Below are positions 20,862 through 37,070 of a DNA stretch of 64,000 nt, one piece after another (position 1 is the stretch's first letter; each line of letters starts with the position of its first letter). The translations under genes and the position numbers were made by a program. This DNA comes from Escherichia phage phiWec179. Under the pieces are notes generated by a model, which saw only the letters and a list, made by a program, of their open reading frames with translations, made no database searches and was not told the origin of the DNA. The stretch is from the sequence record LC739533.1. The stretch is one strand, 5' to 3'.

Positions 20862-20886
20862 AAGGCGCTAAGTGCGCCTTTTTTGA
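20862..20886 (+). terminator. Rho-independent terminator
   Basis: Stem AAGGCGC / GCGCCTT with 5-nt loop, followed by TTTTTT. Confidence 0.7.
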
Positions 20887-20954
20887 TCCTGAACAAAGTC
20901 TTTCGATGGATAAATGGTAAAATAGAATCTCAATCTATTAAATAAGGAACCCAC

Positions 20955-22769
20955 ATGCATAATTTATATCAGGACGTATTTTCTTTTTTGGATAAAACTT
21001 GTGACACATATACACGAGAGAACGCAAACAAACCCTCTCACCTCGTTAACACACATAGGGACTTACTGGCGGGGATTTTAAGTAAGCACATGGCAATGAC
21101 TCAGATATTACCAAAGAACCTCGCAGAATGGCATACAGAAGGTTTTGGACATATCCATGATCTTGATTATCTGTTGTCTCCTCTTACGAATTGTTGTCTG
21201 GTAAACTACCAAGATATGCTGGAGAATGGCTTTAAAATCGGTGCTGCATATATTGAGAAACCTAAGTCCATTGGTGTAGCCACCACAGTGTTGACGCAAA
21301 TCATCCAGGCTGTTGCTTCAAGCCAGTATGGGGGACAAACTTGTGCTCATATTGATCAGGGGTTAAGTCAGTATGTTGAAGCTACCTACCTTAAGAATTT
21401 GAGAGAAACAGAACTACGTTACGGATACCCAGCCTGTAACGAAGCTTTAGCAGCAACAGATAAGGCTGTATATGATGCTATGCAGACATTGCTGTACCAG
21501 GTGAATACACTGATGAGCGTCAATGGACAATCTCCTTTCATCACTATCAGTATGGGATTAGATACAACAGTTTTTGGGAGAATGATCACTAAGAACTATC
21601 TTAAGGTACACAGTGAAGGGTTAGGGAAAGATCATGTCACACCTGTGTTCCCTAAAGTTGTGTTCTTCCTGGAGGAAGGTGTTAACATGGCAACTGAAGA
21701 TCCTAATTACGATCTGAAAAAACAAGCTTTAGAGTGTTGTGCAGATCGAATCTATCCTGACTTCATTTCTGTGCCTCTTAACAAGGAAGTGACAGGCTCT
21801 ACGAAAGGAAATGTTACCAGTATGGGGTGCCGTTCGTTCCTGTCTTACTACACTACAGAACAGGGAGAGAAGTATGATGGACGTTTTAATTTAGGAGTTG
21901 TGTCAATAAACTTACCATTAATTGCAGCTAAAGCAAAAACAGAAGGATATTGTTTCTCTGACCTACTTGATGAACATATGCGTCTGGCTTACGATGCTCA
22001 TATGCTTCGGGTGGAACGCCTACGTCATACACGCGCATCAGAGAACCCTATCCTGTTTATGGAAGGGGCTTTAGCACGTCTCAATGCTGACGATGAGATT
22101 GGAGTTTTGTTTGAGGGTGGGTATGCTTCAATCAGTATTGGGTATGTAGGATTGTCCGAAGCTTTGGAGATCTTATACTCTGAAGAAGCGGATAAGAAAG
22201 AGATGGGCAAAGCTATTCTGCAATACATGAAAGACACTTGTGCAGAGTTTAAAGAGTTGTCTAATCTGCCTTTCAGTTTGTATGGCACTCCTGCGGAATC
22301 CTTGTGCTACAAGTTTGCCACAGCTTTAAATAAAAATTATCCTAATCTGCATGTACGGGATTACCTGACCAACTCGTTCCATCAACCTGTTTGGGAGGTT
22401 ACAAATCCTTTTGAGAAGTGGGACTACGAAACAGGTTTTGCTCAAATCAGTAATGGCGGGAATATTAGTTATGTAGAAACTCCCAACCTGAAGAACAACT
22501 TGGAAGCTTTAGAAGCTTTGGTCGATTATGCTTATGAGCGCATCCATTACTTTGGCATCAATCAACCAGTGGATCAATGTTTCAAATGCAACTTTCATGG
22601 GGAGTTTAAAGCTACAGCAAAAGGTTTTGAATGCCCTTCGTGCGGGAATAATGAAGAAGAAACTATCTCCGTTATTCGTCGTGTTTCCGGTTATCTGTCT
22701 GCCCCTAACTCGCGCCCTTACAACAAAGGGAAAATGCAGGAAGTGTTACAAAGGGAGAAACATCTTTGA
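20955..22769 (+). CDS. nrdD: Anaerobic ribonucleoside-triphosphate reductase (class III RNR)
   Basis: C-terminal glycyl-radical motif RRVSGYL; zinc ribbon CFKCNFHGE...CPSCGN; 604 aa. Confidence 0.85.
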   Translation: MHNLYQDVFSFLDKTCDTYTRENANKPSHLVNTHRDLLAGILSKHMAMTQILPKNLAEWHTEGFGHIHDLDYLLSPLTNCCLVNYQDMLENGFKIGAAYIEKPKSIGVATTVLTQIIQAVASSQYGGQTCAHIDQGLSQYVEATYLKNLRETELRYGYPACNEALAATDKAVYDAMQTLLYQVNTLMSVNGQSPFITISMGLDTTVFGRMITKNYLKVHSEGLGKDHVTPVFPKVVFFLEEGVNMATEDPNYDLKKQALECCADRIYPDFISVPLNKEVTGSTKGNVTSMGCRSFLSYYTTEQGEKYDGRFNLGVVSINLPLIAAKAKTEGYCFSDLLDEHMRLAYDAHMLRVERLRHTRASENPILFMEGALARLNADDEIGVLFEGGYASISIGYVGLSEALEILYSEEADKKEMGKAILQYMKDTCAEFKELSNLPFSLYGTPAESLCYKFATALNKNYPNLHVRDYLTNSFHQPVWEVTNPFEKWDYETGFAQISNGGNISYVETPNLKNNLEALEALVDYAYERIHYFGINQPVDQCFKCNFHGEFKATAKGFECPSCGNNEEETISVIRRVSGYLSAPNSRPYNKGKMQEVLQREKHL

Positions 22770-23236
22770 ATTGTTCAGGCTATGAAGCAACAGACATGCT
22801 TAACGGAGAAGGGGTGAGATGCTCTCTATGGGTCAGTGGATGTAGCCACGGATGCAGAGGATGTTTCAATCAGAAAGCCTGGTCATACTCTTACGGCGCA
22901 GCTTTCACAGAAGCAGATGTAGAACGTGTGTTAGCAGATTTGGCACGACCTTTCATTAAAGGTGTAACAATCTTAGGGGGAGAACCTTTAGACCCACAGA
23001 ATATTGATGAAGTTTATAAGTTGATACTCCGAATCAAGGAAGTGTACGGGGAAGATAAGGATGTGATGGTGTATACAGGATATTTGTTTGAAGACATTCC
23101 TTCCCACATCAAGAATGTTGTGGATACAATCATGGATGGTAAATATGATTTAAATCAACCAACAGCAAAGCCATTCAGAGGTTCTGATAATCAGAGATTA
23201 TGGAACAAGAAGAATGGTATTTGGCAAGCAGATTAA
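22766..23236 (+). CDS. nrdG: Anaerobic RNR activating protein (radical SAM)
   Basis: CSHGCRGC (CxxxCxxC) cluster. Probable TTG start; N-terminus aligns with the E. coli NrdG N-terminus as recalled. Confidence 0.8.
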   Translation: MNCSGYEATDMLNGEGVRCSLWVSGCSHGCRGCFNQKAWSYSYGAAFTEADVERVLADLARPFIKGVTILGGEPLDPQNIDEVYKLILRIKEVYGEDKDVMVYTGYLFEDIPSHIKNVVDTIMDGKYDLNQPTAKPFRGSDNQRLWNKKNGIWQAD

Positions 23237-23249
23237 TACAGGAGATAAT

Positions 23250-24057: not shown

Positions 24058-24714
24058 ATGACTATTAAACATATCTCTTTTGATGTATGGAACACACTGA
24101 TCACAGCAAACCCCAATTACGCAGATATGCGAGCGTGGACTATCGCAAAATACGGGGATATTACGGAAGTAGAAGCAAGAGCAGCTTACAAGAAGATCAA
24201 AAAGGAACTGGACAATGCCGCACTTCAGGGAACAGCCGAGTGTGCAGCATATGCCTGGGAAAGACTTGGTTACGAACTTGGGATAACACCTTTGAAGTCT
24301 GCAAAGCTTCGTTTCGAGTGTGAACAGTGGTTCCTTAAGTTTCCACCGCATGTGGCTGTGGATTTACCGATGCACTTGCTGTATCTTTCGGGGCGTTATG
24401 ATTTGAGCATCAAGAGTAATACCAACTTCATATCAGGAGATATCTTGCGACGTGCCTGTAAGTTTGAAGGTTGGAATTGTTTTGAGTTCACACATTTCTC
24501 GGATGAAGCTTTACTTTGTAAACCAGATCCGCGATTCTTTGCTCGCACGATCACTTATTCTCCAATCCCTCTGGTAGGGCAGGAAGTGTTGCACGTAGGT
24601 GATAGTGAAGAATATGATGGAAAATGTGTTGACGTAGGATTTAACTTCTGTCATATTAAGAACCCTAACGACTTGTTAGATAAACTTGCTAAAGGAGAAC
24701 TTGTTAATGCGTAA
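24058..24714 (+). CDS. HAD-superfamily hydrolase-like protein
   Basis: Motif I-like ISFDVWNTLI (second Asp replaced), motif II SIKSNTN, motif III CKPDP, motif IV VGDSEEYD. Confidence 0.5.
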   Translation: MTIKHISFDVWNTLITANPNYADMRAWTIAKYGDITEVEARAAYKKIKKELDNAALQGTAECAAYAWERLGYELGITPLKSAKLRFECEQWFLKFPPHVAVDLPMHLLYLSGRYDLSIKSNTNFISGDILRRACKFEGWNCFEFTHFSDEALLCKPDPRFFARTITYSPIPLVGQEVLHVGDSEEYDGKCVDVGFNFCHIKNPNDLLDKLAKGELVNA

Positions 24715-25534
24715 TCAAACTCAAATCTTTGCTCACAAATTCGATAGTCTGGAAACTGCTCGCTTTGATATTCGTGACTATTCCAAACTGAAGTTTGGCA
24801 GCAACCAGGCGGCTCGCCGTATGGGGCGAACGCTGGCAGTCTCTTTCTATGACTTGGTAGTCAAGAATATGCCGGAAGAAGAATTTGTGGTGATTCCTTC
24901 ACCTTACAACCATGTGCATAACGCAGCAACCATGATGACCAATCAGTTCATCAACTTCCTGAACCTGTTGCTGTTGAATCACAAGGGTAGCCGTGCAGTA
25001 GAATTGGATACGATCCACCGCAAGGTGAGTTACATTAACGATTATGGTTTCCTGGACAAAGCGAGCCGTAAGAAACTGATTGATGGTGACACCTTCTATT
25101 GCAACAAAGATTTTTGGGGCAACAAGAAGCTGATCTTCATTGATGATGTGAACATCACGGGAACTCATGAAGACAAACTGATTGAGATCCTGGATGAAAA
25201 TAAAGTTACGAATGATGTTTACTTCCTGTATTTTGCGAAGTATACTGGTAATCAAGCAGACACAGAGGCTAAACTGAACTTCAACCATATTAACACGACA
25301 GATGCTTTTGTTAAGATGATCAATGAAGAATGTGATGCGCAGTGTCTTGTTCGTCCTATCAAGTATTTGATGGGACAAACACCGGAAGAGTTTAAAATCA
25401 TTCTTTCCCGTTTGCCGCACCAATACGTAGAAGCACTGTTCTTTGGGTGTCTTGGGGAAGGTTATGATAAGATCGAGAAGTATTCTGAAAACTTCGTCTT
25501 CCTGAACCGTTACTTTAACCAGCATATCCTGTAA
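24707..25534 (+). CDS. Type I phosphoribosyltransferase (PRTase) domain protein
   Basis: PRPP-binding loop KLIFIDDVNITGTHED. Start at MRNQTQ after AAAGGAG RBS. Confidence 0.65.
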   Translation: MRNQTQIFAHKFDSLETARFDIRDYSKLKFGSNQAARRMGRTLAVSFYDLVVKNMPEEEFVVIPSPYNHVHNAATMMTNQFINFLNLLLLNHKGSRAVELDTIHRKVSYINDYGFLDKASRKKLIDGDTFYCNKDFWGNKKLIFIDDVNITGTHEDKLIEILDENKVTNDVYFLYFAKYTGNQADTEAKLNFNHINTTDAFVKMINEECDAQCLVRPIKYLMGQTPEEFKIILSRLPHQYVEALFFGCLGEGYDKIEKYSENFVFLNRYFNQHIL

Positions 25535-25543
25535 GGAGGGAAA

Positions 25544-26026
25544 ATGTTGAAGGTTGTTACTGGGAATCTGATCGATGCCGCCAAGAATGGGAAAGTGAAC
25601 GTTATAGCCCACTGTTGTAACTGTATGTGTAATATGGGTGCAGGGATTGCTCCGCAAATTAAACGAGCATTTCCTTATGCATATGCAGCCGACTTGGATA
25701 CAGCGGCAGGTGATCAAAGCAAACTGGGTTCTTTTAGTTTAGGGGTGCCGGAGGAAGTGTCTGACCCACTGGTTTATAACCTGTACGGACAGTACCGTTA
25801 CGGGTATAACGGTAAAGGTCGTCAGTTGGACTATGATGCCCTGTACGATGCTCTTGAGGCTATGGCAAAGGATCTCCACAAATGGGTGAACACATCTGCC
25901 AAACATAAGATTGGTCTACCTATGATCGGAGCAGGGTTGGCAGGAGGTAATTGGGCTATCATTGAAGTGATGATTGAAGAAACTTTAGTAAAAACAGGTC
26001 ACGATGTGACTATTTATAAACTTTAA
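25544..26026 (+). CDS. Macro domain protein, TARG1/OARD1-like (ADP-ribose binding or hydrolysing)
   Basis: VNVIAHCCNCMCNMGAGIAPQIKRAFP and C-terminal LPMIGAGLAGGNWAIIEVMIEE...VTIYKL, close to recalled OARD1 motifs. Confidence 0.7.
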   Translation: MLKVVTGNLIDAAKNGKVNVIAHCCNCMCNMGAGIAPQIKRAFPYAYAADLDTAAGDQSKLGSFSLGVPEEVSDPLVYNLYGQYRYGYNGKGRQLDYDALYDALEAMAKDLHKWVNTSAKHKIGLPMIGAGLAGGNWAIIEVMIEETLVKTGHDVTIYKL

Positions 26027-26039
26027 GAGGAGAAATAAT

Positions 26040-26261
26040 ATGGGTGTTGTTGCAGGTGTTCTGGCAGTAGTTATCGTGTTTGTTCTGGCTTTCCTGATTA
26101 GTATGATTCCAGCATGGCTTCTGCTGCTGGCTTATAACTACGTTGTTGAAATGATGGGTCACACAGATATCACTGTTCCTATCACCTTCTGGACTGTGGT
26201 GTGTGTGGCATTTATCATGGCTGTACTACGTGGGATCTTTTCCTCAAGTTCTTCAAAATAA
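26040..26261 (+). CDS. Small membrane protein (73 aa)
   Basis: Two hydrophobic helices. Confidence 0.5.
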   Translation: MGVVAGVLAVVIVFVLAFLISMIPAWLLLLAYNYVVEMMGHTDITVPITFWTVVCVAFIMAVLRGIFSSSSSK

Positions 26262-26264
26262 GTG

Positions 26265-26323
26265 TTGACAAGGTTTTAGAATAGAGTAAGATGTATCACA
26301 TGAGGCGGGGAGTGGTTCCCCGC
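26265..26323 (+). promoter_or_regulatory. Conserved early promoter (TTGACA-N16-TAAGAT) with 5' leader hairpin, plus-strand copy upstream of terC
   Basis: -35 (26265-26270), -10 (26287-26292), then GTATCACATGAGGCGG and hairpin GCGGGGA/TCCCCGC (26305-26323). Confidence 0.6.
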
Positions 26324-26342
26324 AAAGAGAAAGGAGAAAATA

Positions 26343-27317
26343 ATGCAACTTGGTTTTCCAATCATTGATGTAGTGGTGTTGGTAGGTATTCTTGTTCTGT
26401 CGATCTGTGTTGACTTTTTTGGTCATCGTGAAAACAAGGAGATCTCTTTCAAATCCGCTGTGGCTTGGTCAGTATTCTGGATTGGTGTGTCTTTAGCCTA
26501 CTACGGTTTTGTATACTTCCAGCACGGCGCAGCTTTTGCAAACTTATTCTTGAGTGGATATGTGTTAGAGAAGTCGCTCTCGGTAGATAACTTGGTAGTG
26601 TTTGTAGCAGTGTTCTCCAGTTTCGGGATTAAGAGCACACACTTACAACACAAAATTCTACTCTGGGGTATTGCAGGTGCGATTGTCTTCCGAGGTGTGT
26701 TTGTAGCAGCAGGGACTTATCTGCTAAGTTTGGGTTGGTTTGTTAATATCATCTTCGGTGCTGTTATCCTGTTCTGTGCTTTTAAAATGGTAATGGCTGG
26801 CGGTGATGATGAAGAAGTGGATTACTCTAAACATTGGGCGACACGCTTTGTACGTAAACTATTCCCAGTATCGGATCAGATGGATGGCGAGAAGTTCTTC
26901 ACAATTAAGAATGGTGTTCGTGTAGCAACTCCGGCTCTGGTTTGTGTGTTCGTGATGGAAATGGTGGATGTGATCTTTGCAGTAGACTCGGTTCCGGCTG
27001 TAATTGCAGTGACACAAGAACCACTGCTTGTATTCTCTTCGATGCTCTGTGCAATCTTAGGCTTACGTGCTCTGTTCTTTGTTCTTAGTGTGGCCCTGAA
27101 GTATCTGGTTCACCTGGAAAAAGCAGTTATCGCAGTCCTGGTGTTTGTTGGTGTGAAACTGATGTATCACCCGTTTGCAGAAACGCTGCACGCAAAAGTG
27201 AGCTTCCTGCCAGCGCATATTGACCCGACGATCAGCATGTATATCGTGCTTGGTACTCTGACCCTGGGCGTGATTGCAAGTTTCATCTTCCCTGAAAAAG
27301 AAGAAGCTACCGCTTAA
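26343..27317 (+). CDS. terC: TerC-family integral membrane protein
   Basis: Signature segments EKSLSVDNLVVF and AVDSVPAVIAVTQEPLLVFSSMLCAILGLRALFF; multiple transmembrane helices. Confidence 0.85.
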   Translation: MQLGFPIIDVVVLVGILVLSICVDFFGHRENKEISFKSAVAWSVFWIGVSLAYYGFVYFQHGAAFANLFLSGYVLEKSLSVDNLVVFVAVFSSFGIKSTHLQHKILLWGIAGAIVFRGVFVAAGTYLLSLGWFVNIIFGAVILFCAFKMVMAGGDDEEVDYSKHWATRFVRKLFPVSDQMDGEKFFTIKNGVRVATPALVCVFVMEMVDVIFAVDSVPAVIAVTQEPLLVFSSMLCAILGLRALFFVLSVALKYLVHLEKAVIAVLVFVGVKLMYHPFAETLHAKVSFLPAHIDPTISMYIVLGTLTLGVIASFIFPEKEEATA

Positions 27318-27325
27318 TACCAATG

Positions 27326-27347
27326 AACCTCCTTCGGGAGGTTTCTT
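27326..27347 (+). terminator. Rho-independent terminator
   Basis: Stem AACCTCC / GGAGGTT with TTCG loop, followed by a T-rich tract. Confidence 0.65.
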
Positions 27348-27365
27348 ACTAACATAGGAGGAATT

Positions 27366-27716
27366 ATGTCTGTATATTTTGACGATGTTCAGGAATATGT
27401 TTGGTGTCTTTCTGGCACAATCTCGGAAGTAGAAGCTGCGATTCAAGAGGTTTTTCCTTACGCTTATGTAGAAGTTAAACAGGCACCTCCTATGGATCTT
27501 CCCCCTAATGTGGAAGCTTGTTGTGGTTCCGGCGAGGGTACAGTCATCCCAGTTCTGCGTTACGAACTACAAGCAGCAAGTGCAAATGTCGATGATATTA
27601 TTACAGAAATTAAGGCGTATGGTTTCTGGACCTCTCCTTACGCTAAATGGGATAACTCTGACACTTGGGATTTATTCTTCTGGGATAATGAGACAGATGA
27701 CGAGGTATTTCTGTAA
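27366..27716 (+). CDS. Hypothetical acidic protein (116 aa)
   Basis: Intact ORF with AGGAGG RBS. Confidence 0.55.
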   Translation: MSVYFDDVQEYVWCLSGTISEVEAAIQEVFPYAYVEVKQAPPMDLPPNVEACCGSGEGTVIPVLRYELQAASANVDDIITEIKAYGFWTSPYAKWDNSDTWDLFFWDNETDDEVFL

Positions 27717-27958
27717 TGAAAGTTGTTTGGGTTGTGTTTGAAAATATTTGTTTTGCAATAGGTTTGTTCGTCATACTTTTTGTGTTGACAAACGTGATCA
27801 ATGGTAGTAAAGTATCCCTATACAAAGACGGGGAGCAGATTTACTGCTTCTCTGGAGATTTCAAACACACCTGTGTTAATATGCAGAAAGAAGAAACTCC
27901 ACACCAGAAGTCAAGAGAAGATTTTGATTGGTGGTCACTACTTAATAACTTAAGATGA
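27716..27958 (+). CDS. Small membrane protein (80 aa)
   Basis: N-terminal transmembrane helix VVWVVFENICFAIGLFVILFVL. Confidence 0.5.
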   Translation: MKVVWVVFENICFAIGLFVILFVLTNVINGSKVSLYKDGEQIYCFSGDFKHTCVNMQKEETPHQKSREDFDWWSLLNNLR

Positions 27959-27967
27959 GGAGAAAAT

Positions 27968-28837
27968 ATGAAAAATATTCAGCCATTACCTGTAGTTGGG
28001 GATTTGTATTTCTTATCTGGTACGGGTTATTCCCCAGAAGCATTAGAAGTTAACAAGAACGTCTTCCGAGTGAAAGAAATAAGAGAAGAATGTAATGAAA
28101 TTGTTTTCGAAGGTATTACTAATGGAGTTCTTCAGTATGCAGAGATGCGTAGCTGCTTCCAGCAACCTTTCCGCCCGTTGGCAGACGAGTATAAGATTGC
28201 GGTAAATATTGATGATCTTAAAAAAGAACCAGGGTTCGAAGCGTTCTCTACTTTTATGGAAGATACGTATGTGGATGTAAAGAGATCTAACCTTTTCGCG
28301 GGGGATAATTTCCCTCACTTTGTGTCAGAGAAAAGTGATGGTTTTTCCGACTACGTGGATGCTGTAAACTATGATGTTTCTGAATTGACAGGAGAGCAGG
28401 ATTATCTTCTGCTGTCTCCTAAAGATTTCATGCGCGTAATGTATGCCGTAGCCGAACAGAAAAAGAAGAAAGAAAAGCTTGTAGCCAAAAAAGTTAAAAA
28501 GGTTAAAGGTAAACGTGCCAAAGGTGTTCCAGAACGTAAGCGCACCGTAAATAAGGCGACAGTCTTCTTTACCAGCGGTGAGCAATATACGATCAAAGGT
28601 TTTAAAGAAGTGGGTTACACTGCTGGCGGAAACCTTCTGTTCTTCACAGTTGCAGAAGAAGGAGAAACTTTTATCCGTTTTTCCAATATGTGGGAAATGT
28701 CTGTAGAAGATATTAAAAGTGTTGTTGTTTTAGGTGTACATAAGAGTTTCATTATTAATCAAATCTCTGATTTCAGTGCACACTTGACAGCACCAGATTT
28801 CGAAACTACCACAACAAGCTTTAACTTCAAGGTGTAA
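27968..28837 (+). CDS. Hypothetical protein with central Lys-rich segment (289 aa)
   Basis: Intact ORF with GAGGAG RBS; KKKKEKLVAKKVKKVKGKRAK stretch. Confidence 0.6.
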   Translation: MKNIQPLPVVGDLYFLSGTGYSPEALEVNKNVFRVKEIREECNEIVFEGITNGVLQYAEMRSCFQQPFRPLADEYKIAVNIDDLKKEPGFEAFSTFMEDTYVDVKRSNLFAGDNFPHFVSEKSDGFSDYVDAVNYDVSELTGEQDYLLLSPKDFMRVMYAVAEQKKKKEKLVAKKVKKVKGKRAKGVPERKRTVNKATVFFTSGEQYTIKGFKEVGYTAGGNLLFFTVAEEGETFIRFSNMWEMSVEDIKSVVVLGVHKSFIINQISDFSAHLTAPDFETTTTSFNFKV

Positions 28838-28840
28838 TGC

Positions 28841-29431
28841 ATGAATACCGAGAGAGATTTAAAACTCTTGTGGTGGGAAGTGATGCAGGAGATCAAGGAG
28901 GATTTCCCTGTTTACTACAACATGCTACGTGAAGCTGGATATACGGCTTGCGTTAGGAACAAAGTGAATAACTCTTTCGGTTGGTGCAACTACCGAGAAA
29001 AGATTGTTGTTGTGAATTGGCACTTGCATAAAAACTCCACAAGGGATATGATAGTGGACACAATGAAGCATGAGATTGCTCATGCGATCGACGGTTGTAT
29101 GGGTAAGTTCAGTCGTCATGGACCACACTGGCAAAAGCTGGCAGCAGAGTTGGGAGCCAATCCTAAAGCTACTTCCAAAGAACCGTTAAACCATGAGTAC
29201 AAATATGTTCTTGTTTTGGTGGACAGATTTGCCACAAGATGTGTTAGAGGGTATAATCGTAAACCTAACCGTATGACTCCAGGGAAACAACCACATATTT
29301 GGTTGAAGAGTGATAAAGAGGGGACAGAAGGAAAAATATGGTTGTATAAATGGGAAGATTGGGTTAAAGTAGCTAAAGAATATGGTGTTTCACCTTACAC
29401 AAGAGAAATAGAAGAGGAGAATGAAGAATGA
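28841..29431 (+). CDS. SprT-like zinc metalloprotease domain protein
   Basis: HExxH motif MKHEIAHAI followed by HGPHW. Confidence 0.5.
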   Translation: MNTERDLKLLWWEVMQEIKEDFPVYYNMLREAGYTACVRNKVNNSFGWCNYREKIVVVNWHLHKNSTRDMIVDTMKHEIAHAIDGCMGKFSRHGPHWQKLAAELGANPKATSKEPLNHEYKYVLVLVDRFATRCVRGYNRKPNRMTPGKQPHIWLKSDKEGTEGKIWLYKWEDWVKVAKEYGVSPYTREIEEENEE

Positions 29432-30540
29432 CAAGTCCATTTTTGAAAGCGGCAACTGGTGGTCAAAAGAAATCTGAAACGAGTGTACTGACTGCTACTA
29501 CAGATGCAAGCAAGTCCGTGTTCGCTCCGAGTGTCCTGGATGCAAGTCCAGTGTATGCTCCAGCAGCGCCAAAAGCTGTGCCTACCTTGCCAACAATGTC
29601 TCGTAAAGAGATTGAAGAAGTGGGTGCAGAAGCAGGTTTAACTCTCCGCACGCTGAATGCCGAAGTGTTAAAGCACCAACGTAGCAATCAAGGCGATGAA
29701 ATGAGCCAACGCCTTACCGCGCTGATTAAACAAGCCAAACAGCTTGATCCTGCTTCTATCAAGCAGAGCAAAGGTGTAGGCAAACTTATCAAGAAACTGA
29801 TGGGTATGAAGGAAGATCTGTTCGGGGAATTCGATAATGTGAACAACCGTATCGAAGAACTCGTTAAGAATCTTCAGATGGATATTCGTAAAGAAGAAGA
29901 TTCTCTGGTGTACCTGGAGAAGCTGCACCAGGCGATCGGACAGTACGCCGCAAGCCTGAATCGTGATATGGAATTACTCACAGCAGCTTATGAGCAAGAA
30001 CTGGCTAACTTTGAAGCTACGCCAGAAGATGACGTAGAAGCCCGTCAACGCGTCCGTGACACGCTTGATCTTCTGGAGATACGTATTGCTGACTTGAAGG
30101 CATTACGCTTGCTGTGCGTGCAAATGGGTCCGCGTGTATTGGGTATGCAGAAAGTATCTGCCAGCCTCATGCGTTCTGCTCGTAATATTGTGAACAATGT
30201 GATTCCTGCTTACTCGGCAAACTTCTCGATGTATATTGAAAGTCTGCGCCAGAAGAAAGCAGCAGAAACACAGAACAACGTTCTGGACGAGTTCAACCTG
30301 GCAATCAAACTGGGTAGCGATCTTGCCACACAGAACCAGATCGAAGCAGCAGCACTGGCTAACCGCCAAGTGTTGGATATCGAAACTCTGCGTCACGATC
30401 AGGAGAACTTGGTTAAGATGTTGGAAGAAACTAACCGCATCAATACGGAAGCCCGTGCTGCCCGTGTTGATTACATCAATGAAGTTCAATCTCTCGAAGA
30501 TGGGATGGTTGACGCTGTTAAGAAGGGGTTGGGTAAATGA
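29428..30540 (+). CDS. TelA-like (toxic anion resistance family) coiled-coil protein
   Basis: 370-aa largely helical protein adjacent to TerC and TerD; family call is from recalled profile and context. Confidence 0.45.
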   Translation: MTSPFLKAATGGQKKSETSVLTATTDASKSVFAPSVLDASPVYAPAAPKAVPTLPTMSRKEIEEVGAEAGLTLRTLNAEVLKHQRSNQGDEMSQRLTALIKQAKQLDPASIKQSKGVGKLIKKLMGMKEDLFGEFDNVNNRIEELVKNLQMDIRKEEDSLVYLEKLHQAIGQYAASLNRDMELLTAAYEQELANFEATPEDDVEARQRVRDTLDLLEIRIADLKALRLLCVQMGPRVLGMQKVSASLMRSARNIVNNVIPAYSANFSMYIESLRQKKAAETQNNVLDEFNLAIKLGSDLATQNQIEAAALANRQVLDIETLRHDQENLVKMLEETNRINTEARAARVDYINEVQSLEDGMVDAVKKGLGK

Positions 30541-30743
30541 GAATCCGTGTATACATGCTTGACGAACAAGCTGGAGAAATAGGTGTTCGTTATGATGAAG
30601 AGAAACGCTTTGCCCCAATGACCCAGCTACAAACTCCAGATATTTTTGCAGCTTGTCGTGACGGATATATCTATGAAGGTTGTCGCAACTTTGGCAGATT
30701 TAAAGTTATTTCTGATGTGGAATTTAACGAGGAGGAAGAATGA
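30537..30743 (+). CDS. Hypothetical protein (68 aa)
   Basis: 4-nt overlap coupling. Confidence 0.5.
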   Translation: MRIRVYMLDEQAGEIGVRYDEEKRFAPMTQLQTPDIFAACRDGYIYEGCRNFGRFKVISDVEFNEEEE

Positions 30744-30910
30744 AAACATTGCGTGTGAACATCGAAACTACCTGGCGAGATTTCGAGGTTGTTGATATTG
30801 AGATTGAAGACGATATGTCTCAAGAAGATATCGAAGATCTTGCAAAAGAAACATTTCAGGACTATTGTAATTACGGGTTCCATATTTTAGGGGAGGAAGA
30901 AGATGTTTAA
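30740..30910 (+). CDS. Small acidic hypothetical protein (56 aa)
   Basis: ATG overlaps the upstream stop and the stop overlaps the next ATG; not in the ORF track. Confidence 0.4.
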   Translation: MKTLRVNIETTWRDFEVVDIEIEDDMSQEDIEDLAKETFQDYCNYGFHILGEEEDV

Positions 30911-31301
30911 ACACACAAACGTAAACTTGAAATTAACAGTAACAGATCCGACTCTTTTCATCAATCTTACAAGCGGGGAAGTTTATGAAGTTATCACAGA
31001 CGAGGATGGTTCTTGCTTCCTTAAAGGTTATTATCTCTGTGAATCTGATGAGTTGGTATCTATTATCACCTTGGGAGAATACGAAGAACCAGGCTTCCGT
31101 GTGGAGGTTGTTAAGAATCCCGATATTATCCAGTTGACTCGCCAAGAACTGATCACAATCATGGAAGACGCTTTTATTGATGGATGGAAGACTCAAAACT
31201 ATGATTGGAGTGGCCCAGAAGACTTCCTGCGTCTTCATAAAGAGTATGACGATTCCAGCGAAACTACTATTGCCATTGATAGTATTAAGGCTGGTGTGTA
31301 A
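30903..31301 (+). CDS. Hypothetical protein (132 aa)
   Basis: Intact ORF with GGAGG RBS. Confidence 0.6.
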   Translation: MFKHTNVNLKLTVTDPTLFINLTSGEVYEVITDEDGSCFLKGYYLCESDELVSIITLGEYEEPGFRVEVVKNPDIIQLTRQELITIMEDAFIDGWKTQNYDWSGPEDFLRLHKEYDDSSETTIAIDSIKAGV

Positions 31302-31370
31302 TGAAAAGTGTTGACAACAATCTCCATAAGATGGATAATACCTCCATCGAAAAAACGGGAGGAGATAAGA

Positions 31371-31643
31371 ATGTTTGATTTTAAAATAAAGGATTCAAAA
31401 CCCCAAGATGTAGCAGTTCGTTTCGAAGAGTTGGGGATTGGTGAAACTTTCATGTATTATTCAGCATATGAAGAAAATGGTTTGGATACATTTGCAAACT
31501 TAGTATTCCTTAAAAGCGGCGGCGCGACTGCTGTTTGTTTGAATAGTTCATCAAGAGGGAGTGTCCATACCGTATCCCCAGATGTGCCGATGGTTGCAGT
31601 TCGTTTAGTAGTTACTGATATTACACTTACAGAGGAGAAATAA
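31371..31643 (+). CDS. Hypothetical protein (90 aa), cassette paralog A
   Basis: MFDFKIKDSKPQ...SAYEENGLD; paralog of 32665..32946. Start after GGGAGGAG RBS. Confidence 0.55.
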   Translation: MFDFKIKDSKPQDVAVRFEELGIGETFMYYSAYEENGLDTFANLVFLKSGGATAVCLNSSSRGSVHTVSPDVPMVAVRLVVTDITLTEEK

Positions 31644-31644
31644 T

Positions 31645-32445
31645 ATGTCCAATAAAATTAGCCTGAAGAAACGCCAAGACACCCTGACCATTTCACTGAA
31701 GAAAAAGAAAATTGTCAACGAAGATCAAAAGATCGTTCTGCGTGTTGCAAGCGCACTGGATATCTCCGGCAGCATGTCCAGCCTGTATCGTAACGGTACT
31801 GTAAGTGAGTTTGTTGGTAAGCTGCTTCCGTTTGGTATGCTGTTCGATGATAACGCGCAGATCGATATGTGGGCTTTCAACAATAGCTCTCGTGAAATCA
31901 CTCCAGCAACTGCTGATGTGTATGATGATTACGTTGGTAAATGCATTAATGGTCGTGTAACAGTCCAGGGTGGCACAAGCTATGCACCTGTTATGCAGGA
32001 TATTTACGATTCCTACTTCGGTAGCACCACTAAATATGAAACTGTAGAAACCCCTGTAACCAAAGAAGTTCCTAAGAAAGGTTTCTTCAACCGTTTACTG
32101 GGTAAAACCGAAACTGTAGAAGCTATTGTAGAAAAAACTGTAGCCGTTGCTGTGCCTGGTGTAGACGTTACTCCGGCAGTTGTGTTCTTCCAGACAGATG
32201 GAGAGAACGATGATCCGAGCCGTGTACTCTCCGTACTGGAAAAGAACAAGGGTAAACCTATTTACTGGTTCATGGTGGGTGTTGGTAGTGCTCGTTTCTC
32301 TTTCCTGAAAGATTTGGCTGAAGCTTACGACAACGTAGCATTCATTGGTCTGAACGATCTTTCCTTGACAGACGAGCAGCTTTACGATAAACTCTTGTCT
32401 GAAGAGTTCGGTGAGTGGGTTGAAAAGGTTGGTGCTAAGAAATGA
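31645..32445 (+). CDS. von Willebrand factor A (vWA) domain protein, TerY-like
   Basis: MIDAS motif DISGSMS, downstream GGTSYAP and VVFFQTDGENDD. N-terminus ISLKK...ISLKK resembles the TerD N-terminus. Confidence 0.7.
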   Translation: MSNKISLKKRQDTLTISLKKKKIVNEDQKIVLRVASALDISGSMSSLYRNGTVSEFVGKLLPFGMLFDDNAQIDMWAFNNSSREITPATADVYDDYVGKCINGRVTVQGGTSYAPVMQDIYDSYFGSTTKYETVETPVTKEVPKKGFFNRLLGKTETVEAIVEKTVAVAVPGVDVTPAVVFFQTDGENDDPSRVLSVLEKNKGKPIYWFMVGVGSARFSFLKDLAEAYDNVAFIGLNDLSLTDEQLYDKLLSEEFGEWVEKVGAKK

Positions 32446-32684
32446 TCGACACGCTGATCTCTCAAACGGTGTTGCAAGTGATGCGTGAGAGAGAAGCTTT
32501 CATCATGAAGGGTCTTAAAGATTATTTTGGGACTCTTTCTTTGGAAGAACTCAAACTACGCGTTGAGATCCATGCGTATCCTTCTTATGAAGAATGGATT
32601 GACAAAGCAAATAAAGCTGTTATAATGCGTATCAACAAACCAGAAATCACGACAGGAGGACAAGATGTTAAATTTCGCCATTAA
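32442..32684 (+). CDS. Hypothetical protein (80 aa)
   Basis: 4-nt overlap coupling. Confidence 0.5.
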   Translation: MIDTLISQTVLQVMREREAFIMKGLKDYFGTLSLEELKLRVEIHAYPSYEEWIDKANKAVIMRINKPEITTGGQDVKFRH

Positions 32685-32946
32685 GAAAGATAGCAAACCA
32701 AAGATTCAGACTTGTCGCATTGCAAATCTTACACATGGTGATTTGTTTGTTCTGAAAAGTGCCTACGACGAAGACGGTCTTGATCCAGAAGCAGTCGTCG
32801 TTTATATGGTGTTGCGGCGAGATGAAGACACCAAGCACCCATACAATGCGGTAGAGATGAATTACAATGCAATGTTGTGCTCAATACACTATACGGCAGA
32901 GTTGGTGCAGGTAGAGTTAACAGTTAACGAAATTAAACTTAAATAA
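32665..32946 (+). CDS. Hypothetical protein (93 aa), cassette paralog B
   Basis: MLNFAIKKDSKP...SAYDEDGLD; paralog of 31371..31643; AGGAGG RBS. Confidence 0.55.
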   Translation: MLNFAIKKDSKPKIQTCRIANLTHGDLFVLKSAYDEDGLDPEAVVVYMVLRRDEDTKHPYNAVEMNYNAMLCSIHYTAELVQVELTVNEIKLK

Positions 32947-32961
32947 TAGAGGAGACACATA

Positions 32962-33564
32962 ATGAGCGATAAAATTTCCCTGAAAAAAGGTTCCACCGAG
33001 AAGATTTCCCTGAAGAAAGTTGCTCCGGCACTGAAAGAACTGCGTCTGGAGTTCTCCTGGAAATCAAACTCTAAACTGGATCTGGATGTAAGCGCACTTG
33101 TATGCCGACACAACGCCTCTGGCAACCCTGAAATGCTGTCTGCACGTCATCTGGTTTGTTATGCTAACAAGTTTGATCCAGAACGTTCTGTATTCGCAGG
33201 TGATGATGTTCGTGACGGTACTGGTCAAATGGAACAAATCGATGTAACCTTGGCTAAGATCTCCGATAAAGCCGAAGAGATTGCTTTTGTCCTAACTATT
33301 GATGATGAAACGGGTCAGAAACGTCTGGGTCACGCTACTGAAGGTATGCTGAAGATCTTTGATGCCGAGCGTAACGTTGAGATCCTGGACTTCGACTTCT
33401 TGGCTCCTGAAGTGGCTGGTAATACCATCTGCCACGTAGCTTCCCTGGTTCGTGAAGACGGTGAATGGAAACTGAAAGCTTACGGTGTTGGTAAAGCAGG
33501 TATGGATATCTGTGATGTGGTTATGGCCTTCGGTGGTCAGAAAGAATGGTACGATTGCCCGTAA
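32962..33564 (+). CDS. terD: TerD-domain protein
   Basis: Aligns along its length with recalled TerD: ISLKKGSTEKISLKK, DLDVSAL, GDDVRDGTGQMEQIDV, IAFVLTIDDE, EDGEWKLKAYGVG. Confidence 0.8.
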   Translation: MSDKISLKKGSTEKISLKKVAPALKELRLEFSWKSNSKLDLDVSALVCRHNASGNPEMLSARHLVCYANKFDPERSVFAGDDVRDGTGQMEQIDVTLAKISDKAEEIAFVLTIDDETGQKRLGHATEGMLKIFDAERNVEILDFDFLAPEVAGNTICHVASLVREDGEWKLKAYGVGKAGMDICDVVMAFGGQKEWYDCP

Positions 33565-33584
33565 GATTTAACTGAAATGTTGTT

Positions 33585-33600
33585 GGGGGAGAAATCCCCC
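33585..33600 (+). terminator. GC hairpin (GGGGGA-GAAA-TCCCCC), weak terminator candidate
   Basis: Directly after the terD stop; no clean U-tract. Confidence 0.3.
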
Positions 33601-33601
33601 A

Positions 33602-33630
33602 TTGCAAAAACGCCTCTCATGTGTTATACT
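33602..33630 (+). promoter_or_regulatory. sigma70-like promoter (TTGCAA-N17-TATACT)
   Basis: Hexamers at 33602-33607 and 33625-33630; AAGGAGG RBS and TTG start follow. Confidence 0.55.
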
Positions 33631-33661
33631 GGTAGTTCATTCACCCAAAAGGAGGCAAAAT

Positions 33662-34183
33662 TTGCTGATAAAAAACTTTGTAACAGTTGCGTTACTATCC
33701 TTAACTGCTTTTACATTTACACCTGTCACGGCAACCGCCGAAGCTGCAAACGTAAAGACTGCTAAAGTAGTTCACAAATGTGCAAAGCAAGATACTAAAG
33801 AAAATCTCTTGGCTTGTGCAATTTACGCTGAAAGTCGTAATCAGGGTAAACGTGGGATGTATGCTGTAGGTAATGTAGTATTGAACAGGAAAGGTGATGA
33901 TTACTTCCCTGATAATATTAAAGATATTCTCTTCCAACGAGGACAATTCTCTTACAGGAAGAAGTTTAACGTTACCGAAGCAGAGCGATGGAAAGAAGCT
34001 AAAGCTATCGCAAAACGACTTATATACCTGGATACACACTTCCCTACACTTAGAGAAGCCCAGGACATGACAAAAGGTGCGACATTTTTTAAGAAAGTAA
34101 AAACCCGTGCACACTGGACAAAAGATATGGTCTTAGTGTATCGTTATAAAGAACATCAGTTCTACCTACCGACAAGGAGCTAA
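33662..34183 (+). CDS. Secreted cell-wall hydrolase, SleB/Hydrolase_2-like
   Basis: Probable TTG start. Signal peptide LIKNFVTVALLSLTAFTFTPVTATAEA; motifs AIYAESRNQG, GMYAVGNVVLNR, FPDNIKDILFQRGQF. Confidence 0.6.
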   Translation: MLIKNFVTVALLSLTAFTFTPVTATAEAANVKTAKVVHKCAKQDTKENLLACAIYAESRNQGKRGMYAVGNVVLNRKGDDYFPDNIKDILFQRGQFSYRKKFNVTEAERWKEAKAIAKRLIYLDTHFPTLREAQDMTKGATFFKKVKTRAHWTKDMVLVYRYKEHQFYLPTRS

Positions 34184-34184
34184 T

Positions 34185-34469
34185 ATGCGAGAAGATAATA
34201 CTGTTGTTGTTGCGAGCTATCTCGTTATCGGTTTAACCGAAGAAGATGTGTACTACATTCGTAAAGGTTTGGAAGCTTACGCTACCCTCTTCATGGAAGA
34301 CGAAAGCGATGTTGATAAATATTCCGTGGAGTTGATCAACGACAGTATTTATCCTTGCATAGCTCTTAAAGTAGATGCTGTTCTGTGGGAGCGTTTTGCA
34401 AGAAGTCACGATGCTATTGAATCTTCAATGGTTATGACACAAAACAACATTTTGGGGGTGATTCACTAA
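34185..34469 (+). CDS. Hypothetical protein (94 aa)
   Basis: Intact coupled ORF. Confidence 0.55.
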   Translation: MREDNTVVVASYLVIGLTEEDVYYIRKGLEAYATLFMEDESDVDKYSVELINDSIYPCIALKVDAVLWERFARSHDAIESSMVMTQNNILGVIH

Positions 34470-34699
34470 TGGCAGATATCATTGAGGTAAACTTCCGTAC
34501 TCGGAAGAAAGTAGAGAAATATACAATATTGAAAAGTGTTTGCGTTGTTTGTTTCAATAGTGTAATCTACGATTCAAGAAAGGGCGAAGACGGTAATGAG
34601 CCGTATATCGAACTGTCAAAGGGCAACGGTAGTTGCATTTGTAAAGCTTGTGCTGTTCAGATTAAGGGGGTTGTTGATGAAAACGAATGGGATAAATAA
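34469..34699 (+). CDS. Small Cys-rich protein (76 aa), possible zinc ribbon
   Basis: CVVC...CICKAC pairs. Confidence 0.5.
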   Translation: MADIIEVNFRTRKKVEKYTILKSVCVVCFNSVIYDSRKGEDGNEPYIELSKGNGSCICKACAVQIKGVVDENEWDK

Positions 34700-34871
34700 T
34701 ACAGGGGAACTTTCTCTTGAGAACGTAACAAACGACAAACTGATTAAAATGCGAGATGTAGCTTTGGATCATCTCCAAGACTCCTTCAAGGAATATATGG
34801 AAGCACGGGATCGTGTGCTTGAGATTCGTCAAGCAATGGTTAAACGCGGAATGGTGGTGGATTCTAAATAA
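34677..34871 (+). CDS. Hypothetical protein (64 aa)
   Basis: Start at MKTNGINN after AAGGGG RBS; the track's longer start at 34596 would overlap most of the upstream gene. Confidence 0.45.
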   Translation: MKTNGINNTGELSLENVTNDKLIKMRDVALDHLQDSFKEYMEARDRVLEIRQAMVKRGMVVDSK

Positions 34872-34880
34872 GGGGTCAGT

Positions 34881-35444
34881 ATGATTTATTATATTACCCC
34901 CTATCTAAGTGGAGATATCGGCAAAGCAATTAACGATGCTATTGCCGTTCTTCACGAAGATAGTTGGGTCTGTTTACGTGATATCGATACCATGTTCTTA
35001 CTGCCAGACCAACCTTCTATGTTGGAAGATTTGGTAGCAACCAATCCACCGTTTGATGTGATCGGTGCGTCTTGTAATCGTTTAGGTAGTGGTTATCAAC
35101 TTCTCGGTGGAAAGATTGATGATGATCCTAACATTCTGAACCATATTTCTCATGCCAAAGTTGCTCGTGATTACTATGGTGATGAAATTGAAGAAGTCCC
35201 ACAAGGCACTCCCTTAGCAGGTTTCTTTCTATTGTTCAGGAAATCATTATGGAAGGAGATCCCTTTTGAAGAACGTACCATCCAGTTCGATATAATCTTC
35301 TCAAACACTTTACATGAACGAGGAAAAAGGTTAGGATTGATGCGTGGGATGTATCTCTTCCATATTTACCGTTTAGGTCAAAAAGATCCTCAACGGGCAA
35401 TATCACACCTTATGCATTGTCATGATCACCGGAAAACTATTTAG
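34881..35444 (+). CDS. Putative glycosyltransferase-like protein
   Basis: DxD-like LRDIDTMF; call rests mainly on position at the head of the glycosyltransferase block. Confidence 0.35.
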   Translation: MIYYITPYLSGDIGKAINDAIAVLHEDSWVCLRDIDTMFLLPDQPSMLEDLVATNPPFDVIGASCNRLGSGYQLLGGKIDDDPNILNHISHAKVARDYYGDEIEEVPQGTPLAGFFLLFRKSLWKEIPFEERTIQFDIIFSNTLHERGKRLGLMRGMYLFHIYRLGQKDPQRAISHLMHCHDHRKTI

Positions 35445-35452
35445 GGGGAAAG

Positions 35453-36136
35453 ATGGAAAATATTAAAATTGGGGTTGGCGTTATCACTGTAGGTGTTCGT
35501 CCACTTAAAGATTACATGGTTGCACCTGGTGTAGACTTCAAAGTGTTTCACGATCCCGATCGTAAAGGTGTAGCTTATGCTCGCAACCAATTAATGAAAC
35601 AGTTCTACGATGAAGGTTTTGACTACTGGTTCATTTTTGACGATGATTGCTATCCGGTTAAACGTGGCTGGGAAGAATACTTCGTTAACCAGGCTGTCGA
35701 GAATGGTTGGGACTTCTTCGGTATGCCAGAATACTTCAAAGATACTGTGATAGGTTGTTCTGGAGAAGTAGTCTTCTGGGAATTGGCTATGTGTCAGTTT
35801 GCAATGTATTCTCGTGCAACTGTTGAGACGATGGGTTATTTCCGTCCTTATACACACGGATATGGTTTCGAAGATGCAGAATGGACTAATCGTCTGAAAG
35901 CTTCAGGTTTGAATAAAGGACTCCAGGGCGTACCTTGTCCGATGCGCATTATGGCGTACATTCACCCCGACGATGTTTTCGGTGATAACCCTTTACCTTT
36001 TGCTAATCTGACAAAAGAAGAGAAAGAATCAGCAATCGGGATCAATTGGGAAGAATACAAACTGTCTTTGGAGGATATTAATAATGGCAAAACACACATC
36101 TCTTTTGAAGAGGCTGAAGGATATGGCGTTAAATAA
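35453..36136 (+). CDS. GT-A fold glycosyltransferase
   Basis: DYWFIFDDDCYP (DxD) and GYGFEDAEW segments typical of GT-A enzymes. Confidence 0.6.
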   Translation: MENIKIGVGVITVGVRPLKDYMVAPGVDFKVFHDPDRKGVAYARNQLMKQFYDEGFDYWFIFDDDCYPVKRGWEEYFVNQAVENGWDFFGMPEYFKDTVIGCSGEVVFWELAMCQFAMYSRATVETMGYFRPYTHGYGFEDAEWTNRLKASGLNKGLQGVPCPMRIMAYIHPDDVFGDNPLPFANLTKEEKESAIGINWEEYKLSLEDINNGKTHISFEEAEGYGVK

Positions 36137-37070
36137 GAAACCAACCCTACTGTGTGACAACAAATTCAACAGTGGTTGTGATTACCATCGCATTGTCATG
36201 CCATTTTCTAACACAGAGATCAAGCCACGTACTGATGTACTGGTCTTTAACCGCATCTTCTCGAAGGGTGCTGATGAAGTAGCCAAACTTAAGCGCCAAG
36301 GTGTTAAGATTGTTGTAGATTTGGATGATTTCTATCAATTGAATCCAGAACACTACCTGGCGCATCTGTACGCGCCAAACACCCGCACAATCGTGGAAAT
36401 GGTTAAAATAGCAGATATTGTCATTGTCACAACCGAATACCTGGCGTACAAAGTTCGTCACTTAAACTCTAACGTTGTTGTGATCCGAAATGCTCTACCG
36501 TTTGATGATGGTCAATTCACTCTCTCGAATGATCGTACTTCGGGTACGCCTATCATTTGGGCTGGAGGTGCGAGTCATGAACCGGATTTACGTTTGCTTT
36601 CAAACACTTTTGATGATAGTTTATTGTCTATCGCAGGGTATGAAGCGAGCAGCACAGTGACAGGGCAAGAGTGGGTTAAGATCCGCCGTAGTTTGCCTAA
36701 TGCGCAGTATAAACCTGCTGTAGATTCTTTGAATCATTATATGTCTGCATACGATGGTCATGCTATGGCTGTAGCTCCGTTAGTAGATAACGACTTCAAC
36801 CATTGCAAGAGCAACCTGAAAGTATTAGAAGCTGGTGCTAAAGGCATTCCAATCGTTTGTTCTAAGGTATTACCTTACTACAACCCGATCGATGCCCGTG
36901 CAGTAACCTTCGCAGATAGCAAAGCAGAGTGGCACTATGAAGTTGTAAAACTACTTCGTAATCCAAACTACCGCGAAGATCGTGGACTGTTCTTGGCTGA
37001 ACATGTTCGTACTCACTACAACTTGAAGGATGCAAACGAATTGCGTCGTCAAGTGATCGAAAGTCTGTAG
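36084..37070 (+). CDS. GT-B fold glycosyltransferase, paralog 1
   Basis: C-terminal KSNLKVLEAGAKGIPIVCS nucleotide-sugar binding motif; paralog of 37071..38021. Start has GGAGGA RBS but overlaps the upstream gene by 53 nt. Confidence 0.6.
   Translation: MAKHTSLLKRLKDMALNKKPTLLCDNKFNSGCDYHRIVMPFSNTEIKPRTDVLVFNRIFSKGADEVAKLKRQGVKIVVDLDDFYQLNPEHYLAHLYAPNTRTIVEMVKIADIVIVTTEYLAYKVRHLNSNVVVIRNALPFDDGQFTLSNDRTSGTPIIWAGGASHEPDLRLLSNTFDDSLLSIAGYEASSTVTGQEWVKIRRSLPNAQYKPAVDSLNHYMSAYDGHAMAVAPLVDNDFNHCKSNLKVLEAGAKGIPIVCSKVLPYYNPIDARAVTFADSKAEWHYEVVKLLRNPNYREDRGLFLAEHVRTHYNLKDANELRRQVIESL

Follow-up and report, generated by a model that had tools for sequence, protein, structure and literature searches.

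Secretory endolysins (Lys44 of phage fOg44) and SAR endolysins (Lyz of P1, R of phage 21) are exported in a Sec-dependent manner without a holin. Each of these three proteins is the sole endolysin of its phage and is encoded in a lysis cassette. For Lys44 of the Oenococcus phage fOg44, accumulation in the periplasm under restraint by the energised membrane, with release once a holin depolarises it, has reportedly been proposed. The phage hydrolase described here differs from them in that a cytoplasmic lysozyme is encoded alongside it, no holin gene is its neighbour, and its catalytic fold is different. Its fold and motif are instead common to the catalytic domain of Bacillus SleB (4F55, 4FET), a germination-specific lytic transglycosylase that requires muramic-delta-lactam in its substrate; sequence identity to SleB is just 21-23%.

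SleB-like homologues were found by tblastn in 1046 phage records, among the Stephanstirmvirinae, Vequintavirinae, Certrevirus, T5-like Demerecviridae, and the Pseudomonas phages Nankokuvirus and Pakpunavirus, and the family is labelled 'endolysin' by PHROG 938 and RefSeq. The proteins of Vequintavirinae and Certrevirus (CB7_83, CR3_087, FFH2 'SleB') are likewise small, single-domain Hydrolase_2 members with an N-terminal signal peptide, and are likewise encoded among early-type genes, apart from the spanins and the other peptidoglycan enzyme (PMC7344957). The Certrevirus protein CB7_83, which exists in addition to another peptidoglycan enzyme, carries a signal peptide and proved toxic to E. 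coli in the work of Buttimer et al. (PMC7344957). The rV5-like phage LNA4 has a GH19-type enzyme plus a PF07486 protein (PMC12031403). In T5-like phages (Tequintavirus), the M15 endolysin gene is beside the holin gene, and the gene for a likewise exported Hydrolase_2 protein (Bf23 sleB, AKFV33 ORF81) is distant from this pair (PMC3326045, PMC11180984), in the early region. Where reported, that is, in T5-like phages, Certrevirus, and the rV5-like LNA4, an exported SleB-like homologue thus exists side by side with a separate peptidoglycan-degrading enzyme (PMC3326045, PMC11180984, PMC7344957, PMC12031403).

In Nankokuvirus, PAK_P3 gp151 and its positional orthologue Ab17 ORF42 also combine Hydrolase_2 with an N-terminal hydrophobic segment and are encoded among DNA-metabolism genes. 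By RNA-seq, the relative level of the PAK_P3 gp151 transcript at 3.5 min already equalled that at 13 min (log2FC 0.62, no significant difference), and the structural genes rose 2^4- to 2^13-fold over the same interval (PMC4933390 S5 table).

Compared with the hydrolase studied here, FFH2 SleB is 41% identical, the T5-like SleB is 38% identical with 149 aa and does not keep the cysteine pair C40/C52, and the Nankokuvirus protein (Ab17 ORF42, 31% identical) has an anchor-like N-terminus and belongs to phages of a Pseudomonas host. The partner enzyme is T4 E-like here, in contrast to an M15 peptidase or lysozyme-like enzyme in Vequintavirinae and Certrevirus. The gene neighbours also differ: a Ter module is upstream and glycosyltransferase genes are downstream here, sleB of the rV5-like FFH2 is between a MoxR ATPase gene and rIIA, and the homologue of KPP10-like phages is among ligase, DprA, and helicase genes.

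Results

Gene model and close relatives

The window is a stretch of 64,000 nucleotides from Escherichia phage phiWec179 (LC739533.1), a phAPEC8-like myovirus (Stephanstirmvirinae, genomes of ~150 kb). Positions 33000-35000 of the window are 100% identical to phiWec181 (LC739534.1) and phiWec186 (LC739535.1), 97% identical to phiWec188, phiWec190, and the 'Pseudomonas' phage PsgM04F, and ~78% identical to many Phapecoctavirus and Justusliebigvirus genomes (Stephanstirmvirinae). Window position w corresponds to position 48118+w of LC739534.1, where tblastn matched the SleB-like gene at record positions 81780-82298. All genes of this region are annotated 'hypothetical protein' in the phiWec records; the hydrolase orthologue in relatives is annotated 'endolysin' or 'putative cell wall hydrolase SleB'. 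Near-identical Phapecoctavirus-type genomes have been deposited as phages of Pseudomonas (PsgM04F), Campylobacter (B15), Acinetobacter (ABPW7), and Klebsiella (ZCKP1). These host labels look doubtful, or like carry-over of a coliphage.

The preliminary description of this locus proposed a TTG start for a program-made open reading frame at 33602-34183. A TTG start was retained, but it is located at 33662 behind AAGGAGG, and position 33602 opens the -35 hexamer, whose TTG is by coincidence in the same frame. The coding sequence is therefore 522 nt long and encodes 173 aa (Table 1), and the same coding sequence is annotated in relatives. All eight Stephanstirmvirinae-type sequences examined share the TTG start and AGGAGG, even where protein identity has fallen to 60%. 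There is no ATG alternative, because the first in-frame Met is downstream of the catalytic Glu. The rV5-like homologue starts with GTG instead of TTG, and the T5-like and KPP10-like homologues start with ATG. One may speculate that the conserved TTG limits the dose of a potentially lethal hydrolase.

Table 1. Features of the hydrolase locus in window coordinates.
Feature	Position	Strand	Remarks
HAD-like hydrolase	24058-24714	+	Ter-type module
ComF-like PRTase_3	24707-25534	+	Ter-type module; E=6e-41
Macro domain	25544-26026	+	Ter-type module
TerC	26343-27317	+	Ter-type module
SprT-like metallopeptidase	28841-29431	+	Ter-type module
TelA	29428-30540	+	Ter-type module
vWA-TerF-like	31645-32445	+	Ter-type module
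terD	32962-33564	+	Upstream neighbour, last gene of the Ter-like block; Pfam TerD E=1.8e-29
GC-rich hairpin GGGGG-AGAAAT-CCCCC	33585-33600	+	Extended stem 33580-33607; directly 3' of terD, abuts the -35 box
Putative sigma-70-type promoter	33602-33630	+	-35 TTGCAA 33602-33607, 17-nt spacer, -10 TATACT 33625-33630
Shine-Dalgarno AAGGAGG	33649-33655	+	6 nt ahead of the TTG start 33662
Hydrolase CDS, 173-aa pre-protein	33662-34183	+	TTG start; stop 34181-34183; predicted exported SleB/CwlJ-like (Hydrolase_2)
Signal peptide codons, residues 1-26	33662-33739	+	Predicted SPase I cleavage ATA↓EA
GAA codon, Glu57	33830-33832	+	Aligns to the Glu of SleB motif YGESRGE
Co-oriented genes 3' of hydrolase	34185-37070	+	Gaps of 0-10 nt or overlaps
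orf94	34185-34469	+	Co-oriented, 3' of hydrolase
Cys-rich orf76	34469-34699	+	Co-oriented, 3' of hydrolase
orf64	34677-34871	+	Co-oriented, 3' of hydrolase
Glycosyltransferase-like genes	34881-35444, 35453-36136, 36084-37070	+	Co-oriented, 3' of hydrolase

Domain, fold, and active site

A SleB-like domain had been noticed in the preliminary description, and Pfam confirmed it as Hydrolase_2 (PF07486) with E=5.7e-17 and 62.6 bits against a gathering cut-off of 27, covering profile positions 2-100 of 100. Hydrolase_2 was the only match in the Pfam scan, and the N-terminal PG_binding_1 domain of Bacillus SleB was absent; residues 1-26 are a predicted signal peptide and residues 27-45 form a short linker before Hydrolase_2. 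The phage protein is a single-domain, CwlJ-sized Hydrolase_2 member and does not have the PG_binding_1 plus Hydrolase_2 architecture of Bacillus SleB.

A profile of the hydrolase family matched the SleB catalytic domains 4F55/4FET with E=5e-13, and YAESRNQG was aligned to YGESRGEP. Glu57 is invariant in 21 close and 90 diverse homologues, and R76 is invariant together with it across the 90 homologues of 23-80% identity. E57 of the phage hydrolase is thus the Glu of a Y-x-E-(S/A)-R-G motif; on the basis of the SleB structure papers, we take the Glu of the YGESRGE motif to be the catalytic residue. An AlphaFold model built with the 90-sequence alignment had a pLDDT of 91.3 and was used in place of a model from 19 close relatives alone, which reached a pLDDT of 56 and was set aside. 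In a Foldseek search with the model, the only significant PDB matches were the SleB catalytic domains 4FET and 4F55 (prob 1.00), with a target-normalised TM of 0.71-0.77.

By analogy with SleB, the chemistry is most likely that of a lytic transglycosylase. Muramic-delta-lactam is not known from E. coli peptidoglycan, and the substrate rules of the phage hydrolase must therefore differ from those of SleB.

Predicted export signal

The signal peptide claimed in the preliminary description was also predicted here, from sequence rules and conservation. It consists of an n-region MLIK, an h-region FVTVALLSLTAFTF, and a c-region TPVTATA↓EA, where the arrow marks the predicted cleavage; an alternative predicted site, AEA↓AN, is two residues past ATA↓EA. 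Among 19 relatives the h-region is nearly invariant and the c-region is variable (VVAQA, VIGIA, VMAKG, AALA, IMVHA, and others), with Pro kept at about -6 despite this variation. Fifteen of the 19 relatives combine A, G, or V in position -3 of the aligned cleavage site with A or G in position -1; for the other four, a site of the type A-x-A, S-x-A, or V-x-A was recognised by eye at most two residues away. Retention of the h-region and of small residues at -3 and -1 while the c-region varies is the pattern expected under selection by signal peptidase I.

Typical signal peptides are found in the rV5-like (FFH2, …LPVVA↓A) and T5-like (Bf23, …SQA↓S) homologues, and a crude hydropathy rule detected an N-terminal hydrophobic segment in ~138 of 167 representative homologues. 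The cysteines C40 and C52 are nearly invariant, which is compatible with a periplasmic location. A canonical cytoplasmic endolysin has no export signal, whereas an n-h-c signal peptide is conserved here. A lipoprotein was ruled out, since the signal region has no lipobox Cys.

For Phapecoctavirus proteins, signal peptides have been reported as undetected (PMC10698182), which conflicts with the present analysis. The same report claims that a 173-aa 'endolysin' is at least 99% identical to the T4 and lambda lysozyme structures, again in conflict with our analysis, and we regard its other sequence claims as unreliable.

Putative promoter, hairpin, and probable transcription unit

The hydrolase gene directly follows terD, separated by an intergenic gap of 97 nt, and the TTGCAA-N17-TATACT sequence is present in this gap, both as previously described. 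The putative promoter includes an extended -10 TG at 33622-33623 and has a consensus score of 9/12. A bare consensus match is not above chance, with 16 sites in the 8 kb from 30 to 38 kb against 16.0 expected from shuffling, so the evidence for the promoter is its conservation: eight relatives, with a mean identity of 63% across their intergenic regions, show no change in TTGC, TGnTAnAnT, or the distance between them, although the surrounding bases differ. On this basis we take the putative promoter as real. A search for a phage-specific promoter class sharing the conserved -35-region motif found the full pattern only once in the window, and relaxed versions of it matched no more often than expected by chance; the motif therefore does not assign a temporal class to the promoter.

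The hairpin preceding the promoter had an MFE of -15.3 kcal/mol (z=-3.1). All six relatives that were folded have a hairpin of 7-9 bp at the equivalent site, and the sequences of stem and loop differ among them. A terminator scan did not list the hairpin, which is without a T-run. As it has no U-tract, it is probably a weak terminator at best, or an RNA 3'-end stabiliser. A second unit of hairpin followed by promoter is at window 32557-32626 (+); it is contained in the terminal part of ORF 32442-32684 and precedes ORF 32665-32946. Its hairpin (32557-32578, +) is terminator-like with a T-rich tail, and a perfect TTGACA-16-TATAAT with TG comes after it at 32599-32626 (+).

Past position 37070 the gene block continues with a fourth glycosyltransferase gene and then primase/helicase and DNA polymerase genes. 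The genes at 34185-37070 probably share the hydrolase promoter, and the tight co-oriented arrangement of the small ORFs, glycosyltransferases, primase/helicase, and DNA polymerase suggests that the hydrolase is probably the first gene of an early or middle unit. The closest structural genes, which encode tail proteins, begin at ~46.7-47.6 kb of the window on the opposite strand, ~12.5 kb off, in agreement with the earlier statement that the gene is far from the structural genes.

The region upstream of the hydrolase, window 24058-33564 (+), holds a near-complete Ter-type module, which we take to match the bacterial gene neighbourhoods described as 'Ter-dependent stress response / nucleoside-like metabolite'. 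Downstream, four consecutive glycosyltransferase-like genes occupy window 34881-37070 and beyond (+; locus L004 43619-46894). Their Pfam matches are weak, a TET-associated glycosyltransferase among them, and dTDP-rhamnose-type sugar genes are present elsewhere in the genome. Further upstream, window 20884-23241 has no counterpart in the 97%-identical PsgM04F and holds a 604-aa ORF (20955-22769) and a 156-aa ORF (22766-23236). At this place, Mt1B1_P17 has the large and small subunits of an anaerobic ribonucleotide reductase.

A T4 E-type lysozyme and spanins elsewhere in the genome

A phmmer search of all ORFs in the 97%-identical PsgM04F genome revealed a 167-aa protein matching T4 E with 1.6e-48. 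It shares 49% identity with T4 E, retains the counterparts of the catalytic residues E11, D20, and T26, and has neither a hydrophobic N-terminus nor a signal sequence. In phiWec181 a gene outside the window, at LC739534.1 3548-4048, specifies the identical protein (locus also given as L004:42695-43198, -). At a threshold of at least 60% identity, the T4 E-like gene occurs in 132 and the SleB-like gene in 131 phage records; both are core genes of the subfamily. A Phapecoctavirus genome announcement likewise mentions 'two lytic proteins' with PF00959 and PF07486 (PMC10793346).

The T4 E-like lysozyme is annotated 'hypothetical protein' in phiWec and PsgM04F and 'lysozyme' in other records, and several relatives carry the erroneous label 'baseplate hub + tail lysozyme'. 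The latter label arises because PHROG 430 (tail) outscores PHROG 7 (endolysin); the protein is free-standing, with 167 aa and without gp5-like domains.

Rz-like spanin genes are just upstream of the terminase gene (phiWec181 129123-130072, outside the window), ~47 kb from the SleB-like gene. The i-spanin (PsgM04F L005:21968-22610, +) is clear, with 135 aa and one N-terminal transmembrane segment. The ORF after it has 60 aa, belongs to PHROG 1267 'Rz-like spanin', and in its annotated form shows neither a signal peptide nor a lipobox; the start or frame of the o-spanin is therefore probably mis-annotated.

T4 holin T and antiholin RI had no match among the ORFs of the window, PsgM04F 1-150000, and Mt1B1_P17 1-50000, and phmmer with lambda R and P22 gp19 as queries gave no match. 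A transmembrane scan of the genes adjoining both muralytic genes and the spanins yielded no holin candidate; the product annotated as 'hol-like chemotaxis' lacks transmembrane segments. The linkage to holin and spanin genes that marks a canonical endolysin was not seen for the SleB-like gene. No holin adjoins the T4 E-like gene either, and its product is for this reason likewise a putative endolysin.

The preliminary description had suggested a search for holin or spanin genes elsewhere in the genome, and had named a canonical endolysin-holin cassette elsewhere, with the SleB-like gene silent, as evidence against its proposal. Half of this was found: a lysozyme and Rz-like spanins are present, but the search gave no holin and there is no tight cassette, the lysis genes being scattered as in T4.

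Discussion

The evidence from sequence agrees with the earlier view that the gene encodes a peptidoglycan hydrolase exported by Sec and has a promoter of its own away from the structural genes; this promoter proved to be conserved. The molecular description of this hydrolase is secure, and any account of its physiological role is provisional. We favour, with a probability of roughly 0.6, an accessory enzyme that is Sec-exported, cleaved by signal peptidase, periplasmic, made before the late phase, and independent of a holin, with the T4 E-type lysozyme as the canonical endolysin. An accessory periplasmic hydrolase is likelier than a signal-peptide endolysin because of the T4 E-type lysozyme, the spanins, and the co-existing enzymes in other lineages.

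According to this proposal, host RNA polymerase would read the hydrolase gene from the conserved sigma-70 extended -10 promoter as the first gene of a unit with small ORFs, four glycosyltransferases, and replication genes. Since it heads a unit with replication genes, the hydrolase would probably be expressed ahead of the late genes. Translation would start from the conserved TTG behind the strong Shine-Dalgarno sequence, and signal peptidase I would remove the 26-residue Sec signal peptide to give a mature enzyme of ~147 aa. This enzyme would get to the periplasm without a holin and cut the sacculus in the course of infection. The canonical lysis machinery would be encoded elsewhere and would consist of the T4 E-type cytoplasmic lysozyme, the Rz-like spanins, and a holin. 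A soluble muralytic enzyme in the periplasm early in infection risks premature lysis, so some restraint must be assumed; candidates are a low dose via TTG, substrate limitation, and dependence on the proton motive force.

The alternative that survives best is a secretory endolysin, acting as main or co-endolysin, which would be held by the energised membrane and triggered by a holin. A muralytic enzyme with an intact active site and what sequence and conservation predict to be a cleavable Sec signal peptide would suit this role, as would the 'endolysin' label of PHROG 938 and the status as a core gene. However, these genomes conserve a complete T4 E-type lysozyme just as well, so the hydrolase is not the only endolysin candidate of its phage; T5-like phages place the M15 endolysin by the holin and the SleB-like gene far off (PMC11180984); no holin adjoins the SleB-like gene here; and the PAK_P3 homologue is not late-regulated. 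Of the signal-peptide-type endolysin suggested in the preliminary description, the predicted export and the active site thus stand, but the T4 E-type lysozyme makes the lytic role less likely, and we consider it possible but doubtful.

A special case of the accessory enzyme is an auxiliary 'metabolic' one, by which controlled peptidoglycan turnover would yield anhydromuropeptides and, from these through the recycling pathway of the host, amino-sugar nucleotides for the phage; the four glycosyltransferases of the unit could use them. Chevallereau et al. proposed wall degradation by PAK_P3 gp151 during infection as the explanation for UDP-GlcNAc-type precursors, which were up 2- to 3-fold late in PAK_P3 infection with host gene expression unchanged (PMC4933390). 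In the present phage, the hydrolase heads the block with the four glycosyltransferase genes, and the genome also has dTDP-sugar genes. The link to glycosyltransferases is, however, not kept in rV5-like (MoxR/rIIA), T5-like, and KPP10-like (ligase/DprA) phages, and the PAK_P3 proposal is purely correlative (PMC4933390). A metabolic role of this kind is improbable in our judgement.

If the N-terminus stayed uncleaved, the protein could be a SAR endolysin, anchored to the inner membrane in inactive form by this N-terminus until the proton motive force is lost through the action of a pinholin. The N-terminal segment comprises 21 uncharged, hydrophobic residues, 52% of them Thr, Ala, or Ser, a composition also found in SAR domains, and the N-terminus of the KPP10-like homologue is longer and anchor-like with no obvious AXA site. 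On the other hand, the segment contains no Gly, an acidic residue is directly past the site, and the helix-breaking Pro at -6 and the A/G-x-A/G site are conserved amid variable residues, as selection for cleavage predicts. The ORFs adjoining the gene encode no transmembrane segment and thus provide no pinholin candidate. The conserved cleavage motif and the lack of Gly make a SAR endolysin a less likely reading, to which we give only a very slim chance.

A decaying or silent remnant without function is hardly credible, as the catalytic Glu, fold core, signal peptide, Shine-Dalgarno sequence, start, and promoter are conserved down to 60% protein identity. The entry function considered in the preliminary description is unlikely, and a virion-associated lysin was ruled out, since Sec export is not compatible with packaging, which is cytoplasmic.

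Annotations of the family already exist in over 1000 phage records, and the homologues, the signal peptide and E. coli toxicity of one of them, and the two-lysin arrangement in Phapecoctavirus have been published. In the phiWec181 record, both muralytic genes are called 'hypothetical', and automated pipelines label the SleB-like gene 'endolysin' and miss the T4 E-like gene or mislabel it 'baseplate hub + tail lysozyme'. Enzybiotic mining or engineering of lysis timing in these phages has to reckon with a pair of enzymes that differ in their route of export.

As a tentative generalisation, which we think rather unlikely to hold as a whole, exported Hydrolase_2 enzymes made from early on would serve a conserved non-lytic function in five or more lineages of virulent phages that infect Gram-negative bacteria (phAPEC8-, rV5-, Certre-, T5-, and KPP10-like). 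If this were true, the Hydrolase_2 enzymes of the five lineages would not be redundant endolysins, and controlled remodelling or turnover of peptidoglycan would feed amino-sugar pools for phage glycosylation or precondition the sacculus for fast, complete lysis.
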